Source: Chloroflexota bacterium | GTDB taxonomy: Bacteria > Chloroflexota > Limnocylindria > QHBO01 | NCBI GenBank assembly: GCA_040003165.1 | Contig: JBDUDC010000002.1 | Span: 1-32,053, forward strand | Reading direction: 5' to 3' | DNA length: 32,053 nt | Shown: positions 1,023 to 27,603 of the stretch, in pieces | How positions within the stretch are numbered: position 1 is the first letter of the stretch | Layout of the letters: each line of letters opens with the position of its first letter | Program-made: the position numbers and the translations under genes | Notes under the pieces: model-generated | What the model was told of the DNA's origin: nothing | The model's database searches: none | Seen by the model: only the letters and a program-made list of their open reading frames with translations

Positions 1023-3022
1023 GCCTCGTGACGCTCAGCGGGCTGGCGAAGAGCCACGGCGCGCAGCACCTCTTCTCGGGTGTCGATCTCCAGATCACCG
1101 GCGGGCGGCGCATCGCGATCGTGGGTCCGAACGGGGCGGGCAAGACGACCCTGCTCGAGATCATCACCGGCGAGCAGCAGGCGGACGCGGGGACCGTTGC
1201 GCGGGGCCGCGACGTGGTGATCGGCTACCTGCGCCAGGAGGTAGCCGAGAGCCGCGGCCGCTCGGTGCTGGCAGAGGTCCTGGCCGGGGCCGGGGAGCTG
1301 TCGGGGATCGGGCGCCGGATGCGCCACATCGAGGCCGAGCTGGCGGAGGCCAGCGAGGACGACGAGCTCGAAGAGCTGATGGCGGAGTATGGCCGTCTGC
1401 AGCACCGCTTCGAAGCGTTGGGCGGCTACTCGATGGAGGCGGAGGCTCGCCGCATCCTGGCCGGCCTCGGTTTCGCCGATTCAGACGTTGAGCGCGACAT
1501 CGAGCAGTTCTCAGGGGGCTGGATGATGCGAGTCGCCCTCGCCCGGCTCCTCCTGCAGAACCCTGACGTGCTTCTGCTGGACGAAGCGACCAACCATCTC
1601 GACCTCGCATCGGTCGAATGGCTTCAGGCCTTTCTGGCCGATTACGCAGGCGCGATCGTGCTGGTCAGCCACGATAGGGACTTCATCAACACGGTCGCCA
1701 ACCGTGTAGCCGAGCTCGCCCATGGACAGCTGACGGAGTACGTCGGCGACTACGCCGACTTCGTCGAGCAGCGCGAGGCGCGCGCCGCTCAGATCGAGGC
1801 TGCCGCAAAGGGGCAGGCGCGCAAGATCGCACACACCCAGGCCTTCATCGACCGATTCCGATACAAGGCCAGCAAGGCGCGCCAGGTCCAGAGCCGGATC
1901 AAGGCGCTCGACAGGGTCGAGCGAATCGAGACTCCGGTGACTCGCACGAAGAGCGTGAAGTTCCGCTTCCCGCAGCCACCGCGCAGCGGGCGGACGGTGA
2001 TCACCCTGCGCGACATCGTGAAGGGCTATGGCACCACCCACGTCTACGACGGGCTCGACCTTCAGCTCGAGCGGGGCCAGAAAGTGGCCCTCATCGGCCC
2101 GAACGGTGCCGGCAAGTCGACCCTCCTGAAGATCCTGGCCGGCGTTCTGCCGTTTGAGGGCGGAACGCGCGAGCTTGGGCTGAACGTGCGGGTGGCCTAT
2201 TTCGCGCAGCACCAGATCGAGGCGTTGAACCCAGCCAACACCGTCTTCGTCGAGCTCGAGACGGCCGCCCCGCGGATGAGCACCGCGGACATGCGACGGC
2301 TGCTTGGCGCGTTCCTCTTCTCCGGCGATGCGATCAGCAAGCCAGTCGGCGTTCTCTCCGGTGGCGAGCAGACCCGGCTGGCGCTCGCCAAGCTGCTCGC
2401 CGACCCGGCCAATCTGCTCTGCCTCGACGAGCCGACCAACCACCTCGACATCCAGAGCCGCGACGTGCTCGAGGACGCGCTCAACGCGTTTCCGGGCACC
2501 ATCGTGCTCATCACCCACGACCGATACCTGATCCGCTCGGTGGCGAACACGATCGTCGAGGTCAACGCAGGCGATGCGACCGTCTATCGCGGCGACTTCG
2601 AGTACTACGCCGCCAAGCGTGGGATCGATATCGAGCAGCGCGGAGCGGTCGAGGGTGTCGCAACGCCGCGCGGGGTGGTGGTCAGTCCTCCGAAGATCCG
2701 CGAGTCGGCGGCCGATGCCGCATCGCGCAAGCGCGAGGAGGCCGAGGCGAGGAACCGACGCTATCGACGCACCCGCGACCTGCGCGCCACGCTGGAGCGA
2801 GTAGAGGCCGACCTGCAGCGGGCCGATCACGAGCTTGCCGGCCTGGTCGAGCGGCTCGCGGACCCGGCCATCTACACCGACGGTGAGCTGGTGCGCGGAC
2901 TGATCGCTCGCCACAACGCCGCGCGCGAGGTGAGCGCCTCGCTGGCGTCCGAGCGCGAGCGGCTCAGCGGCGAGCTCGATGCCGCGGAGGGGCTCGAGGC
3001 TCCGGCCGGTGGCACGCGTTGA
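1019..3022 (+). CDS. ABC-F family ATPase (Uup/YheS-like, two ABC domains, no TM domain)
   Basis: 667 aa. Two Walker A motifs (GPNGAGKTTLL, GPNGAGKSTLL) and two signature motifs (FSGGWMMR, LSGGEQTRLALA). Arg/Glu-rich coiled-coil C-terminal extension. The ATG overlaps the thrB stop (ATGA at 1019-1022). Confidence 0.9.
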   Translation: MSLVTLSGLAKSHGAQHLFSGVDLQITGGRRIAIVGPNGAGKTTLLEIITGEQQADAGTVARGRDVVIGYLRQEVAESRGRSVLAEVLAGAGELSGIGRRMRHIEAELAEASEDDELEELMAEYGRLQHRFEALGGYSMEAEARRILAGLGFADSDVERDIEQFSGGWMMRVALARLLLQNPDVLLLDEATNHLDLASVEWLQAFLADYAGAIVLVSHDRDFINTVANRVAELAHGQLTEYVGDYADFVEQREARAAQIEAAAKGQARKIAHTQAFIDRFRYKASKARQVQSRIKALDRVERIETPVTRTKSVKFRFPQPPRSGRTVITLRDIVKGYGTTHVYDGLDLQLERGQKVALIGPNGAGKSTLLKILAGVLPFEGGTRELGLNVRVAYFAQHQIEALNPANTVFVELETAAPRMSTADMRRLLGAFLFSGDAISKPVGVLSGGEQTRLALAKLLADPANLLCLDEPTNHLDIQSRDVLEDALNAFPGTIVLITHDRYLIRSVANTIVEVNAGDATVYRGDFEYYAAKRGIDIEQRGAVEGVATPRGVVVSPPKIRESAADAASRKREEAEARNRRYRRTRDLRATLERVEADLQRADHELAGLVERLADPAIYTDGELVRGLIARHNAAREVSASLASERERLSGELDAAEGLEAPAGGTR

Positions 3023-25760: not shown

Positions 25761-26174
25761 GTGAACTGGACCCTCGAGCTCATCGTCGTCCCCGTCTCGG
25801 ACATCGATCGCGCCAAGGCCTTCTACGTTGAGAACGCAGGCTTCAACCTGGATGTCGACCACAGCGCCGGCAAGGACTTTCGCGTGGTGCAGCTGACGCC
25901 GCCGGGCTCGGCATGCTCAATTGCGCTGATGAGGAGCCCAGAGATGGCGGCAGGCTCGATCCATGGCCTGCATCTGTGTGTTCCCGACATCGAGGCCGCG
26001 CGGGCCGAGCTCGTCGAACGAGGCGTGGATCCCAGCGAGATGTGGCACATGGAGGGAGGCGGCCAGGCACCTGGGCCGGATCCGGAGCGCCGGAGCTATG
26101 CCACGTTCCTCTCCTTCAACGATCCGGATGGCAACACCTGGCTGGTCCAGGAGAAGCGTGCGCCGACGTCATGA
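25761..26174 (+). CDS. VOC (glyoxalase/bleomycin resistance/dioxygenase) family protein
   Basis: 137 aa. VPVSDIDRAKAFYVE..GF and FNDPDGNTWLVQE patterns. GTG start preceded by AAGGAG. Confidence 0.75.
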   Translation: MNWTLELIVVPVSDIDRAKAFYVENAGFNLDVDHSAGKDFRVVQLTPPGSACSIALMRSPEMAAGSIHGLHLCVPDIEAARAELVERGVDPSEMWHMEGGGQAPGPDPERRSYATFLSFNDPDGNTWLVQEKRAPTS

Positions 26175-26611
26175 CCGGCGCACCTCCCGCGGCCCGCGAA
26201 CGCGTGATCTTCCTCTGCACGCACAACAGCGCGCGGTCGCAGATGGCCGAGGGGATGCTGCGCGCCTGGGGCGAGGGAAGGTTCGACGCGTTCAGCGCGG
26301 GCACCATCCAGAGCGACCTCCGTCCCGAAGCGGTCGAGGTCATGCGCGAGATCGGGATCGATATCGGCGCCCAGCGGAGCAAAGCGATCGATCAGCTCGC
26401 CGGCCAGAGCTTCGACCGGTTGGTGACAGTGTGCGACGAGGCGAGGGAGAGCTGTCCCACACTGCCCGGAGTGACCGAGCAGCAACACTGGCAGATCGAC
26501 GACCCTTCTGCGGCTGAGGGCGACGAGGAGCAGCGCATCGGTGCCTTCCGCCGGGCGCGCGACGAGCTGGCGGAGCGCGTGCGCGACCTCGTCGCGGAGG
26601 CCGGGAGGTAG
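26171..26611 (+). CDS. arsC: Arsenate reductase, thioredoxin-coupled LMW-PTPase type
   Basis: 146 aa from the internal ATG (MTGAPP...). CX5R P-loop in IFLCTHNSARSQMAEG, plus the downstream redox cysteine pair in VTVCDEARESCPTLPG. ATGA overlap with the VOC stop. Confidence 0.85.
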   Translation: MTGAPPAARERVIFLCTHNSARSQMAEGMLRAWGEGRFDAFSAGTIQSDLRPEAVEVMREIGIDIGAQRSKAIDQLAGQSFDRLVTVCDEARESCPTLPGVTEQQHWQIDDPSAAEGDEEQRIGAFRRARDELAERVRDLVAEAGR

Positions 26612-26642
26612 GCGCCGGCCCGGCAGCGGCCGCACCGGCGCC
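26611..26642. terminator. Candidate bidirectional terminator hairpin between arsC and the Cys-rich sORF
   Basis: GGCGCCGG (26611-26618) / CCGGCGCC (26635-26642), with inner CGGC/GCCG pairing in the loop. It sits between the arsC stop (26609-26611) and the sORF stop (26654-26656). Confidence 0.4.
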
Positions 26643-26653
26643 CGATCAGCGGC

Positions 26654-26716
26654 TCAGCAGCAGCCGGTCCGGCAGCATTCGCCGCAGTCGCATTCGCAGT
26701 CAGCATCCGATCGCAT
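26654..26716 (-). CDS. Unannotated 20-aa cysteine-rich peptide MRSDADCECDCGECCRTGCC (candidate mini-metallothionein)
   Basis: ATG at 26716 is preceded by AAAGGAGG with 8-nt spacing. 8 of 20 residues are Cys, all encoded TGC. TGA stop at 26654-26656. A hairpin lies 12 nt downstream. It is divergent from arsR across an AT-rich operator region. It is too short to appear in the ORF track. Confidence 0.45.
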   Translation of the reverse strand: MRSDADCECDCGECCRTGCC

Positions 26717-26739
26717 GGCAGGCACCTCCTTTCCCAGAT

Positions 26740-26745
26740 ACTATA
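26740..26745 (-). promoter_or_regulatory. Candidate -10 hexamer TATAGT (minus strand) for the Cys-rich sORF
   Basis: The minus strand reads ATCGATATAGTATCTGGGAAAGGAGGTGCCTGCCATG. The hexamer sits about 23 nt upstream of the ATG, which leaves a short SD-containing leader. Confidence 0.35.
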
Positions 26746-26780
26746 TCGATGCCCGTCAATATAGACGAAGGCTGATATAG
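26741..26780. promoter_or_regulatory. Candidate ArsR/SmtB operator: inverted repeat CTATATCGA-N6-TCAATATAG plus a third half-site CTGATATAG
   Basis: 9-6-9 inverted repeat at 26741-26764 (8 of 9 complementary). A direct copy of the right arm lies at 26772-26780. This is the only strongly AT-rich island in this part of the window. It overlaps both candidate -10 elements. Confidence 0.45.
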
Positions 26781-26781
26781 T
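26773..26781 (+). promoter_or_regulatory. Candidate extended -10 promoter TGaTATAGT for arsR (leaderless geometry)
   Basis: TGATATAGTgacccgcgATG. The hexamer ends 8 nt before the ATG at 26790, and there is no SD. Confidence 0.45.
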
Positions 26782-26789
26782 GACCCGCG

Positions 26790-27077
26790 ATGAAGTCTGC
26801 CGACCCTGATGTCCTGCTCCTCTCCGCGCTGGCCGATCCGACGCGTCTGGAGATCGTTCGCCAGCTCGCCGCGGGCGGTGCCTGCGCGTGCGACTTCACC
26901 GATTGCTGCGGCGTCAGCCAGCCGACCATCTCGCACCACCTCAAGGTCCTTCGCGACGCGGACGTGGTCCAGAGCGAGCGCCGCGGCACGAACATCTACT
27001 ACTCGCTGGCGCCGTCGGTGGCCGGACGCTTCGCTTCGATCGGAGCCAGCCTCGCGGGGCTGGTTCGCATCTCCTGA
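26790..27077 (+). CDS. arsR: ArsR/SmtB family metalloregulatory repressor (thiolate alpha3-type site)
   Basis: 95 aa. LADPTRLEIVRQL and the wHTH block VSQPTISHHLKVLRDADVV. Cys32-x-Cys34 aligns with the ELCVCDL motif of ArsR, and an additional Cys39-Cys40 pair follows. There is no C-terminal His-rich alpha5 site. Confidence 0.88.
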   Translation: MKSADPDVLLLSALADPTRLEIVRQLAAGGACACDFTDCCGVSQPTISHHLKVLRDADVVQSERRGTNIYYSLAPSVAGRFASIGASLAGLVRIS

Positions 27078-27099
27078 TCGCCGCGCTACCCTTGATACG

Positions 27100-27603
27100 G
27101 TGACCCTCACCGTCCCCGCATGCCCGCACTGCGCCGGTCCGGATGAACAGCCGCTTATCTGCGCGCGATGCGCATGGCGCTGGTACTCCAATCCGAAGCC
27201 GGCGGCGGGCGTGATCCTCGAGCGCGACGGATCGATCCTCCTCCTGCGCCGTGCCGTCGAGCCCGGCGCAGGAGCATGGGATCTGCCCGCCGGTTATCTA
27301 GATCCGGGCGAATCGCCGGAAGAGGCGGCGCGCCGCGAGACGCTCGAGGAGGCCGGGCTTGACGTGGAGCTCCTCCGTCTCCTGGGCGTCTACACCAGCA
27401 GGCCGGGGAATGCGGTGGCATGCATCTATCTCGCGAGGATGCGGGATCCATCGGCCCCCGTACGGCTCGACCCCGAGTCAAGCGAATTCGCCTGGGTCCG
27501 GCACGAGGAGGTGGCCGACTGGCTGCCGCGCCTGGCGTTCCGATCGATGGCCGCCGCGCTCGCCGACTGGCGGGTGAATCGGTCGGGCGAGCCCCAGTCC
27601 TGA
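27100..27603 (+). CDS. Nudix hydrolase with an N-terminal zinc ribbon
   Basis: Nudix box [24 protein letters not shown]-terminal CPHC...CARC. I chose the GTG start at 27100; upstream codons of the ORF-track frame overlap arsR. TACCCT lies 7 nt upstream of the GTG. Confidence 0.8.

Follow-up and report, generated by a model that had tools for sequence, protein, structure and literature searches.

A cysteine-rich minigene divergent from arsR in soil Chloroflexota and Actinomycetota: a putative ArsR-controlled thiolate peptide

Does an open reading frame of 20 codons, lying back to back with the gene of an ArsR/SmtB-type repressor, encode a working peptide, and what would such a peptide be for? 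The question is raised by a 32-kb stretch of DNA from a Chloroflexota bacterium (contig JBDUDC010000002.1, positions 1 to 32,053), in which a short open reading frame (sORF) rich in cysteine codons is divergent from arsR. This whole stretch is called the window below, and the positions of the sORF and its surroundings are numbered on it. A preliminary description, made from the DNA letters, had proposed that the sORF encodes a mini-metallothionein under ArsR control. The reading favoured here is that its product is an ArsR-repressed thiolate peptide for As(III) or soft metals, acting as a sink or a chaperone, and we give this reading a probability of roughly 0.55. The evidence comes from the composition of the sORF, its conservation in related loci, the putative operator upstream of it and the arsenic genes around it.

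The open frame and its codons (ATG CGA TCG GAT GCT GAC TGC GAA TGC GAC TGC GGC GAA TGC TGC CGG ACC GGC TGC TGC TGA) were found as previously described, and the product is MRSDADCECDCGECCRTGCC. The cysteine content had been overestimated: the peptide contains seven cysteines (35%), at positions 7, 9, 11, 14, 15, 19 and 20, not eight (40%). The CxCxC, CC and C-terminal GCC motifs were all found, aromatic residues were absent, and the cysteine codons form two adjacent pairs (codons 14-15 and 19-20). The claimed canonical Shine-Dalgarno (SD) sequence at 8-nt spacing was also recovered, the GGAGG core ending 8 nt 5' of the ATG, as was the AT-rich island, with a GC content of 0.47-0.53 at 26700-26819 against 0.65-0.83 in the flanks. 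The sORF is indeed unannotated, having been skipped by the gene callers on two identical public contigs. When all six frames of the 32 kb were searched for open reading frames (ORFs) of 12-60 aa, all nested starts included, it was the sole ORF with at least 25% Cys. In 300 windows simulated with a third-order Markov model, no ORF of 12-40 aa reached both six cysteines and 30% Cys.

The window peptide had no Pfam, NCBIfam or PDB match at E <= 10 in searches whose HMMER filters are weak for 20-residue queries, and 10 further peptides of the family described below had no NCBIfam match at E <= 10, again a soft negative for short queries. Rfam gave no match for 26200-27300 at E <= 1. Two other frames were considered and rejected: a GTG start at 26725 (23-aa product) falls within the SD sequence, and a 104-aa ORF (26392-26706, minus strand) runs antisense to arsC in a frame other than that of the sORF. 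Past its TGA the sORF frame runs into a 179-aa open frame (26096-26635, minus strand) antisense to arsC, which is a typical shadow ORF of GC-rich DNA.

Table 1. Features of the arsR-sORF region of the window, and representative sORF peptides of related loci (L numbers)
Feature	Position	Strand	Remarks
arsC (LMWP-type arsenate reductase homologue)	26171..26611	plus	LMWPc E = 4e-18; arsC_pI258_fam 129 bits, below the cutoff of 174
GC-rich stem-loop	26611..26642		between the convergent sORF and arsC; its first base, 26611, is also the end of the arsC stop codon
sORF	26716..26654	minus	20 codons plus TGA stop; encodes MRSDADCECDCGECCRTGCC, 7 Cys
Shine-Dalgarno sequence AAAGGAGGTG	26732..26723	minus	GGAGG core 26729..26725
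Putative ArsR operator, three half-sites	26740..26781		inverted repeats; between the SD sequence of the sORF and the arsR start
arsR (ArsR/SmtB repressor, 95 aa)	26790..27077	plus	HTH_5 E = 2e-15; HTH_metalloreg 94 bits, cutoff 55
L081 peptide			MRSECDCECCGDCCRTGCC
L001 peptide			MRLNDGCCDGNCDCAGRACC
L005 peptide			MCCDPDCCSDCC
L010 peptide			MEPTRCDCDCCSEGCCSPGCC
L022 peptide (Actinomycetota metagenome-assembled genome)			MSANQCECDCCKGGNCC
L153 peptide			MRGCECDCDCCKGGGCC

Related loci were retrieved with the ArsR protein as the only bait, species-representative genomes and metagenomes contributing 80 loci each; the family counts come from these 160 ArsR-seeded loci, and for occurrence away from arsR the coverage is the 718 kb examined. 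A comparable sORF was present in 26 of the 160 loci, always 5' of arsR and on the other strand, the carriers being uncultured soil Chloroflexota (Ca. Limnocylindria) and Actinomycetota; the closest relatives of the window ArsR (56-96% identity) belong to uncultured Chloroflexota of the class Ca. Limnocylindria. A strict scan of both strands of the 718 kb (at least five Cys, at least 30% Cys, 10-40 aa) gave 23 matches, all of them upstream of arsR on the opposite strand and none elsewhere. L089, L090, L115 and the longer L107 lie just below these thresholds. The family sORFs mostly have 12-21 codons and 5-8 cysteines, six being the commonest number. The GGAGG sequence stands 5-9 nt 5' of the start in 27 of 27 members, and CC forms the C-terminus of 24 of 26 peptides. 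Over the 26 peptides, Cys makes up 39% of the residues and Gly and Asp 15% each, while Phe, Trp, Tyr and His are absent; the net charge ranges from 0 to -4 and is negative in all peptides except one (25/26).

The contig of one of these loci, L001 (CAYVCE010000085.1), is labelled as a Steroidobacteraceae (Gammaproteobacteria) metagenome-assembled genome and encodes the closest ArsR of the genome set (73% identity). It carries an sORF, operator and arsM typical of the Limnocylindria loci, and may be mis-binned.

Five close pairs of sORFs were compared codon by codon. The differences comprised 17 synonymous and 11 non-synonymous codons, with 8, 4 and 19 changes at the first, second and third codon positions, respectively; TGC/TGT swaps occurred, no cysteine was lost, and alignment identity dropped immediately past the stop codon. 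The window differs from L081 and L082, whose ArsR proteins are 95-96% identical to its own, by a single 3-nt indel that keeps the frame, by exchanges between D and E and by silent substitutions, and downstream of the sORF the indels among these three are not multiples of three. Across the family, frame, cysteines and CC-stop are retained despite variation in the length and sequence of the peptide. The check that the preliminary description had put first, conservation of the frame in synteny with arsR, thus came out strongly in its favour: start, SD sequence, frame, cysteine pattern and terminal CC-stop are kept next to arsR homologues in two phyla. The third-position changes, the in-frame indel and the loss of identity after the stop point to selection on the translated product, and the sORF is very probably a real, translated gene under selection at the peptide level. 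The stop codon is TGA in 18 members and TAG in 9. Selenocysteine read-through of the TGA was considered and rejected on account of these TAG stops (9 of 27 members) and of the unconserved post-stop sequence with its out-of-frame indels.

The start codons of the sORF and arsR are separated by 73 nt, almost filled by an array of inverted repeats. The array includes an exact 7-6-7 palindrome, ATATCGA-N6-TCAATAT, at 26743-26762 and a third half-site, GATATAGT, at 26774-26781. The degenerate form ATATYGA-N6-TCRATAT occurs once in the 32-kb window, where 0.03 occurrences are expected, and is found just upstream of arsR in most relatives. In Actinomycetota loci with the same architecture one copy abuts the SD sequence of the sORF (TTCATCGAT-N4-ATCGATGAA-AGGAGG) and another is located at the arsR start. 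In L002, a large gene puts 1.8 kb between arsR and the sORF, and the locus's only exact operator copy lies 36 nt upstream of the displaced sORF. Because this copy stays with the sORF, the latter appears to carry an ArsR box of its own. In the window the array comes within 8 nt of the SD sequence of the sORF and within 9 nt of the arsR ATG, so that, from the geometry, any promoter of either gene must overlap it. The locus thus combines the regulator family with the shared intergenic palindromic operator that characterize an ArsR/SmtB divergon. With a palindromic operator filling the 73-nt gap, control by ArsR is geometrically very plausible, and we consider it likely that the sORF is controlled by ArsR through the putative operator.

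The preliminary description had stated that no downstream gene exists for which the sORF could be a leader, and the neighbouring arsC is indeed convergent with it. The GC hairpin that it had placed 12 nt beyond the sORF starts 11 nt after the stop. The fold of 26596-26660 (minus strand) has an energy of -39 kcal/mol (z = -2.8), equalled by none of 200 shuffled sequences. The stem-loop has no U-tract, and a scan of 26000-27400 for U-tract terminators found no site; it is probably a bidirectional terminator. A strong GC hairpin follows the stop codon at a distance of 0-25 nt in 24 of the 26 family loci checked, the exceptions being L006 and L010. In 14 loci (the window and 13 others) the gene after the sORF is convergent, and it is arsC, upp, ychF or a gene for a GDPD, VOC or DUF6220-like membrane protein. 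In about 10 loci the sORF is followed by a gene on the same strand (DUF47-PiT, DinB_2 or ChrA). The unit looks like a monocistronic minigene made up of operator, ribosome binding site (RBS), 12-21 codons and hairpin, sometimes placed ahead of other genes of the regulon. The conservation of the sORF, the plausibility of ArsR control and the argument against a leader are the parts of the original proposal that stood, whereas the identity of the product as a mini-metallothionein is still something we infer from sequence.

The genes found on the same strand are of some interest in themselves. A DUF47 (PhoU_div) plus PiT (PHO4) pair lies behind the sORF and the hairpin in L009, L011, L090, L091, L093 and L108, sometimes followed by ChrA; in L001 a ChrA gene follows the sORF. 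An ArsR-controlled phosphate transporter would be noteworthy by itself with respect to arsenate/phosphate discrimination. In L090 the stretch between the sORF and DUF47-PiT encodes a DUF1059 protein of 70 aa (1809-2021, minus strand), in which there is a CxC motif (…AVDCECGTT…). A DinB_2/mycothiol-S-transferase-like gene begins 12-15 nt past the sORF stop in L006 (2196-2666) and L010 (2365-2832), and this spacing suggests translational coupling of the Cys peptide with a thiol-transferase-type enzyme.

As for the cognate ion, most of the context suggests arsenic. Most sORF loci are flanked by arsC, arsM (NF008823, 288-292 bits, cutoff 263) or a gene for a MIP channel. In sister Limnocylindria loci without the sORF the arsR-divergent gene is arsM or encodes an FAD-oxidoreductase, and on cultured actinobacterial plasmids (arsR about 50% identical) this position is taken by arsD-arsA, arsM or a MIP channel gene. 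The best PDB matches of the window ArsR are ArsR proteins (8qkf and 6j0e), and its helix alpha3 contains the motif CACDFTDCC, which we take to stand where ArsR of E. coli R773 has its As(III) site CVCDLC. The ArsR proteins of Actinomycetota have an extra N-terminal CC, as in Corynebacterium ArsR, with PDB 6j0e among the best matches. Cysteine clusters recur in the ArsM proteins of these loci. The C-terminus of ArsM reads ...GCGCGSGGCC in L009 (2811-3617), L011 (3319-4122), L090 and L091, and the ArsM of L095, encoded upstream of and divergent from arsR at 1891, has the N-terminal insert CCGDDAGCGCGDACC, to be compared with the L113 peptide MPRALSCCDDAGCCGDDCC. Both the C-terminal ending and the N-terminal insert (also read as AAGCCGDDAGCGCGDACCG) bear a close resemblance to the free sORF peptides. 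It is as if the same Cys module occurred both free and fused to ArsM.

The following mechanism can be proposed. In the absence of inducer, ArsR dimers would occupy the three-half-site palindrome and block both divergent promoters. As(III) or another thiophilic ion would bind to the CxC...CC of helix alpha3 and release the repressor, these two steps being suggested by the geometry of the sequence. The sORF would then be transcribed and efficiently translated from its strong SD sequence, yielding an acidic peptide with about 35-40% Cys and no hydrophobic core. Two S3 sites for As(III), or alternatively a single small metal-thiolate cluster, could be formed by its three Cys doublets or CxC groups. 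Once induced, the peptide would use its thiolates inside the cell to buffer the ion, to sequester it or to hand it on. It would be a genetically encoded equivalent of phytochelatins, short fungal metallothioneins and the vicinal-Cys sites of ArsD, and by lowering free As(III), the inducer, it would feed back on ArsR. Trigonal S3 coordination of As(III) is established for ArsR, ArsD and ArsM, as are complexes of arsenic with phytochelatins and metallothioneins, and the chemistry proposed for the peptide is thus supported by analogy. To our knowledge, the soil Chloroflexota and Actinomycetota that carry the sORF lack glutathione or do not use it as their main thiol. A more far-reaching interpretation, which we hold tentatively and at a little under even odds, is that the sORFs represent a new ars-regulon family of ribosomally made poly-Cys peptides of 12-21 residues, usually with six cysteines that could form two As(III)S3 sites. 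Such peptides would be smaller than any other gene-encoded metallothionein-like molecule known. They would function as "genetically encoded phytochelatins" inducible by arsenite, or as hand-off ligands like ArsD, and the same module would also have been fused onto ArsM.

Several observations weigh against an ArsR-repressed thiolate peptide acting on As(III). A scan of 26000-27400 for sigma-70-type promoters found no site for the sORF. The peptides of Chloroflexota and Actinomycetota are too short and of too low complexity to prove homology over convergence. No cultured organism with the sORF was found in the ArsR-seeded search and the plasmid loci: none of four actinobacterial plasmid ars loci (arsR about 50% identical) contained it, and tblastn with a peptide of the Actinomycetota type gave no match among 72,556 plasmids. 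The same-strand genes of about 10 loci may indicate a cis-regulatory or operon-linked role there. In L120 (2405-3803; Actinomycetota) arsR is followed by the gene of a NicT/HoxN (NiCoT) nickel/cobalt transporter (343 bits, cutoff 333) and not by arsenic genes; because arsR adjoins a nickel transporter here, the cognate ion may differ between loci. Finally, peptides of 12-21 residues are possibly unstable, as has been suggested for the cysteine attenuator peptides of mycobacteria (PMC13096801).

Among the alternatives, the one that survives best is that the peptide is translated and its main job is something other than sequestration: an anti-repressor of ArsR or a means of delivering the inducer, a redox or Fe-S ligand, a precursor or substrate of thiol chemistry, for instance by the DinB/mycothiol-S-transferase-like enzyme, or the precursor of a ribosomally synthesized and post-translationally modified peptide (RiPP). 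The tight coupling of the sORF to arsR and its operator would fit such a role, as would the DinB_2/mycothiol-S-transferase gene 12-15 nt behind the sORF of L006 and L010 and the presence of further small Cys-terminated ORFs in the same divergons (see below). However, the sORF has no maturase, radical-SAM or transporter gene as a regular neighbour, the only constant neighbours being arsR and the operator. The conserved maturation enzyme or exporter expected next to a RiPP gene was not found, the neighbours varying between arsC, upp, ychF, GDPD, PiT, DinB and ChrA. The composition of the peptides and their CC and CxC motifs match those of thiolate metal-binding peptides and of the Cys-rich ArsM appendages of the same loci. 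We regard a main function other than sequestration as unlikely.

Alternatively, the sORF could be a cis-acting leader, at whose Cys codons ribosomes pause if thiols or charged tRNA-Cys run short, as they might in arsenite stress, thereby tuning the downstream genes. Polycysteine short ORFs of this kind, leaderless and cysteine-responsive, have been described as attenuators in mycobacteria (Canestrari et al.; bioRxiv 10.1101/834739; PMC13096801), and the consecutive Cys codons at the 3' end of the sORF are reminiscent of one of them, Ms5788A (bioRxiv 10.1101/834739). A same-strand gene that could be tuned is present in about 10 loci, at 12-15 nt in the case of DinB_2 (L006 and L010) and about 80-150 nt on, past the hairpin, in the case of DUF47-PiT (L009, L011, L091, L093 and L108). 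In the window and 13 other loci, on the other hand, a leader would have no target, because the next gene is convergent; and the downstream genes, where present, are not genes of cysteine metabolism. The strong SD sequence of all members also sets the family apart from the leaderless mycobacterial attenuators, and the conservation of the terminal CC and of the spacing by acidic residues, Gly and Pro goes further than Cys codons alone would demand. In 23 loci the coding region was no more complementary to the hairpin's 5' arm than expected (mean z +0.38, none below -2), indicating that an alternative pairing of the attenuator type is absent. A classic leader-peptide attenuator was rejected on these pairing data and the convergent neighbour in 14 loci, and a leader role in general appears quite improbable.

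That there is no gene at all, the sORF being a chance ORF in a GC-rich spacer conserved for the sake of an operator, a terminator or a small RNA, is very hard to maintain: the sORF is very short and unannotated, TGC-rich frames arise as the reverse of the common alanine codons GCA and GCC, and hairpins are frequent in GC-rich DNA, but the simulated windows (0/300) and the rest of the 718 kb yielded no such ORF, the SD sequence is conserved in 27 of 27 members, the third-position bias, in-frame indel and TGC/TGT swaps are those of a coding sequence, frame, cysteines and CC-stop are kept while length and sequence vary, and Rfam gave no match.

The remaining features of the region can be dealt with briefly. 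The divergent gene had been assigned correctly to the ArsR/SmtB family (Table 1). It has no SD sequence, and a TATAGT hexamer resembling a -10 element ends 8 nt before its ATG (26776-26792); for these reasons arsR may be translated from a leaderless or near-leaderless mRNA, unlike the sORF with its strong SD sequence. Relatives have TTGTCA-17-TATAAT at the equivalent position. The first 4 nt of arsC are also the last 4 nt of the VOC/glyoxalase gene upstream of it (25761-26174). Downstream of arsR lies a gene for a NUDIX hydrolase with an N-terminal zinc-ribbon-like CPHC...CARC motif (27100-27603 in the window, 2810-3313 in L081), and the arsR-NUDIX linkage is kept in the three closest loci. 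The gene order upp-arsC-sORF-arsR-mdh-citrate synthase is common to the window, L002 and L005, a synteny that makes an origin of the window in Ca. Limnocylindria probable. Other conserved small ORFs of about 50-65 aa are present in ArsR divergons, nearly all of them ending in Cys motifs: in L016, L018, L020 and L100 (on the sORF strand, between the arsR operator and arsM), in L017 and L109, in L009, L089 and L090, and in L014 and L104. The endings include ...ATATCAC*, ...PSTCSC*, ...RIRACCNPS...GQPVAC*, ...MSQRCEPC* and ...SSASCDCTD*. They give the impression of additional families of cysteine-bearing small proteins in the ArsR regulon, likewise unannotated.

The ars systems described so far deal with arsenic by reduction, export, methylation or chaperoning. 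An ArsR-linked poly-cysteine peptide, and an inducible gene-encoded thiolate buffer for arsenic, were not encountered in searches of 8.3 million full texts and a 2024 review of bacterial metal homeostasis, which is absence of evidence in that literature only. We rate as new the combination of a gene-encoded, presumably repressor-controlled thiolate peptide of ultra-short length with linkage to ars genes in two phyla. If the peptide binds As(III) or soft metals, a missing component would be added to bacterial arsenic resistance, and the lower size limit of metallothionein-like proteins would fall from 22 aa to about 12-20 aa. Standard annotation does not see the family, which was skipped by the gene callers of public contigs and has no hidden Markov model, and its recurrence in abundant uncultured soil lineages shows what the blind spots for small ORFs conceal. 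The system is compact: a synthetic peptide of 20 residues and about 480 bp of arsR-operator-sORF DNA suffice for its study. Natural (Asp/Glu-Cys)n peptides with a matched ArsR operator might also be used in biosensing or bioremediation.

Compared with known systems, the mycobacterial polycysteine ORFs share with the sORF that they are unannotated, have about 10-30 codons with Cys runs often at the 3' end, and are conserved in position and not in sequence. They are leaderless, are always located ahead of cysteine-related operons and depend on base-pairing with the RBS downstream. In contrast, the sORF has a strong SD sequence, stands alone in the window and 13 other loci, shows no competing pairing and belongs to an ArsR divergon, so that of four features of polycysteine attenuators it lacks three and has one, the consecutive Cys codons.

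In composition the peptides resemble metallothioneins: the window peptide is of low mass and high Cys content (20 aa, 35%) and contains CECDC, CC and GCC, and the 26 peptides have neither aromatic residues nor His. No membership in known metallothionein sequence families (Pfam, NCBIfam, PDB) was detected, again a soft negative for 20-residue queries. The copper metallothionein of Neurospora crassa has 25 aa and seven Cys. With the short fungal metallothioneins the family shares size class, Cys fraction, CxC plus CC motifs, the absence of aromatic residues and a set of six or seven Cys, one small cluster's worth. The fungal proteins are eukaryotic, unrelated in sequence and otherwise regulated, while the family described here extends down to 12 aa. 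The preliminary description had put the smallest metallothionein at about 25 aa; the smallest accepted one is MMT1 of Magnaporthe grisea, with 22 aa (PMC12508003).

The alternation of acidic residues with Cys (CECDC, CDCDCC) recalls the phytochelatins and the engineered (Glu-Cys)n peptides. Phytochelatins, (gamma-Glu-Cys)n-Gly, are metal(loid)-inducible ligands of As(III) and Cd. They are synthesized enzymatically from glutathione and not by ribosomes (PMC11314372); the peptides considered here, by contrast, are gene-encoded alpha-peptides. A likeness to ArsD and ArsM is seen in the same arsR-divergent position in related loci, and in the ArsM tail ...GCGCGSGGCC of sister loci. ArsD, the partner of ArsA, is folded, has about 120 aa and binds As(III) by vicinal Cys pairs; the sORF peptide has no sequence similarity to it, and no arsA is found near the sORFs.

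The closest parallel in architecture is smtB-smtA of Synechococcus PCC 7942. SmtA, which belongs to Pfam Metallothio_Pro, has about 56 aa and a zinc-finger-like fold, whereas the peptide described here has 20 aa and no Pfam or NCBIfam match. The context here is one of arsenic (arsC, arsM, MIP) and not of zinc, and the repressor has the alpha3 CxC...CC site and not the alpha5 zinc site. In both systems an ArsR/SmtB repressor is divergent from a small Cys-rich product, with an operator-promoter region with inverted repeats shared between them, and the logic to be expected is the same: derepression by the bound ion, and feedback through its sequestration.

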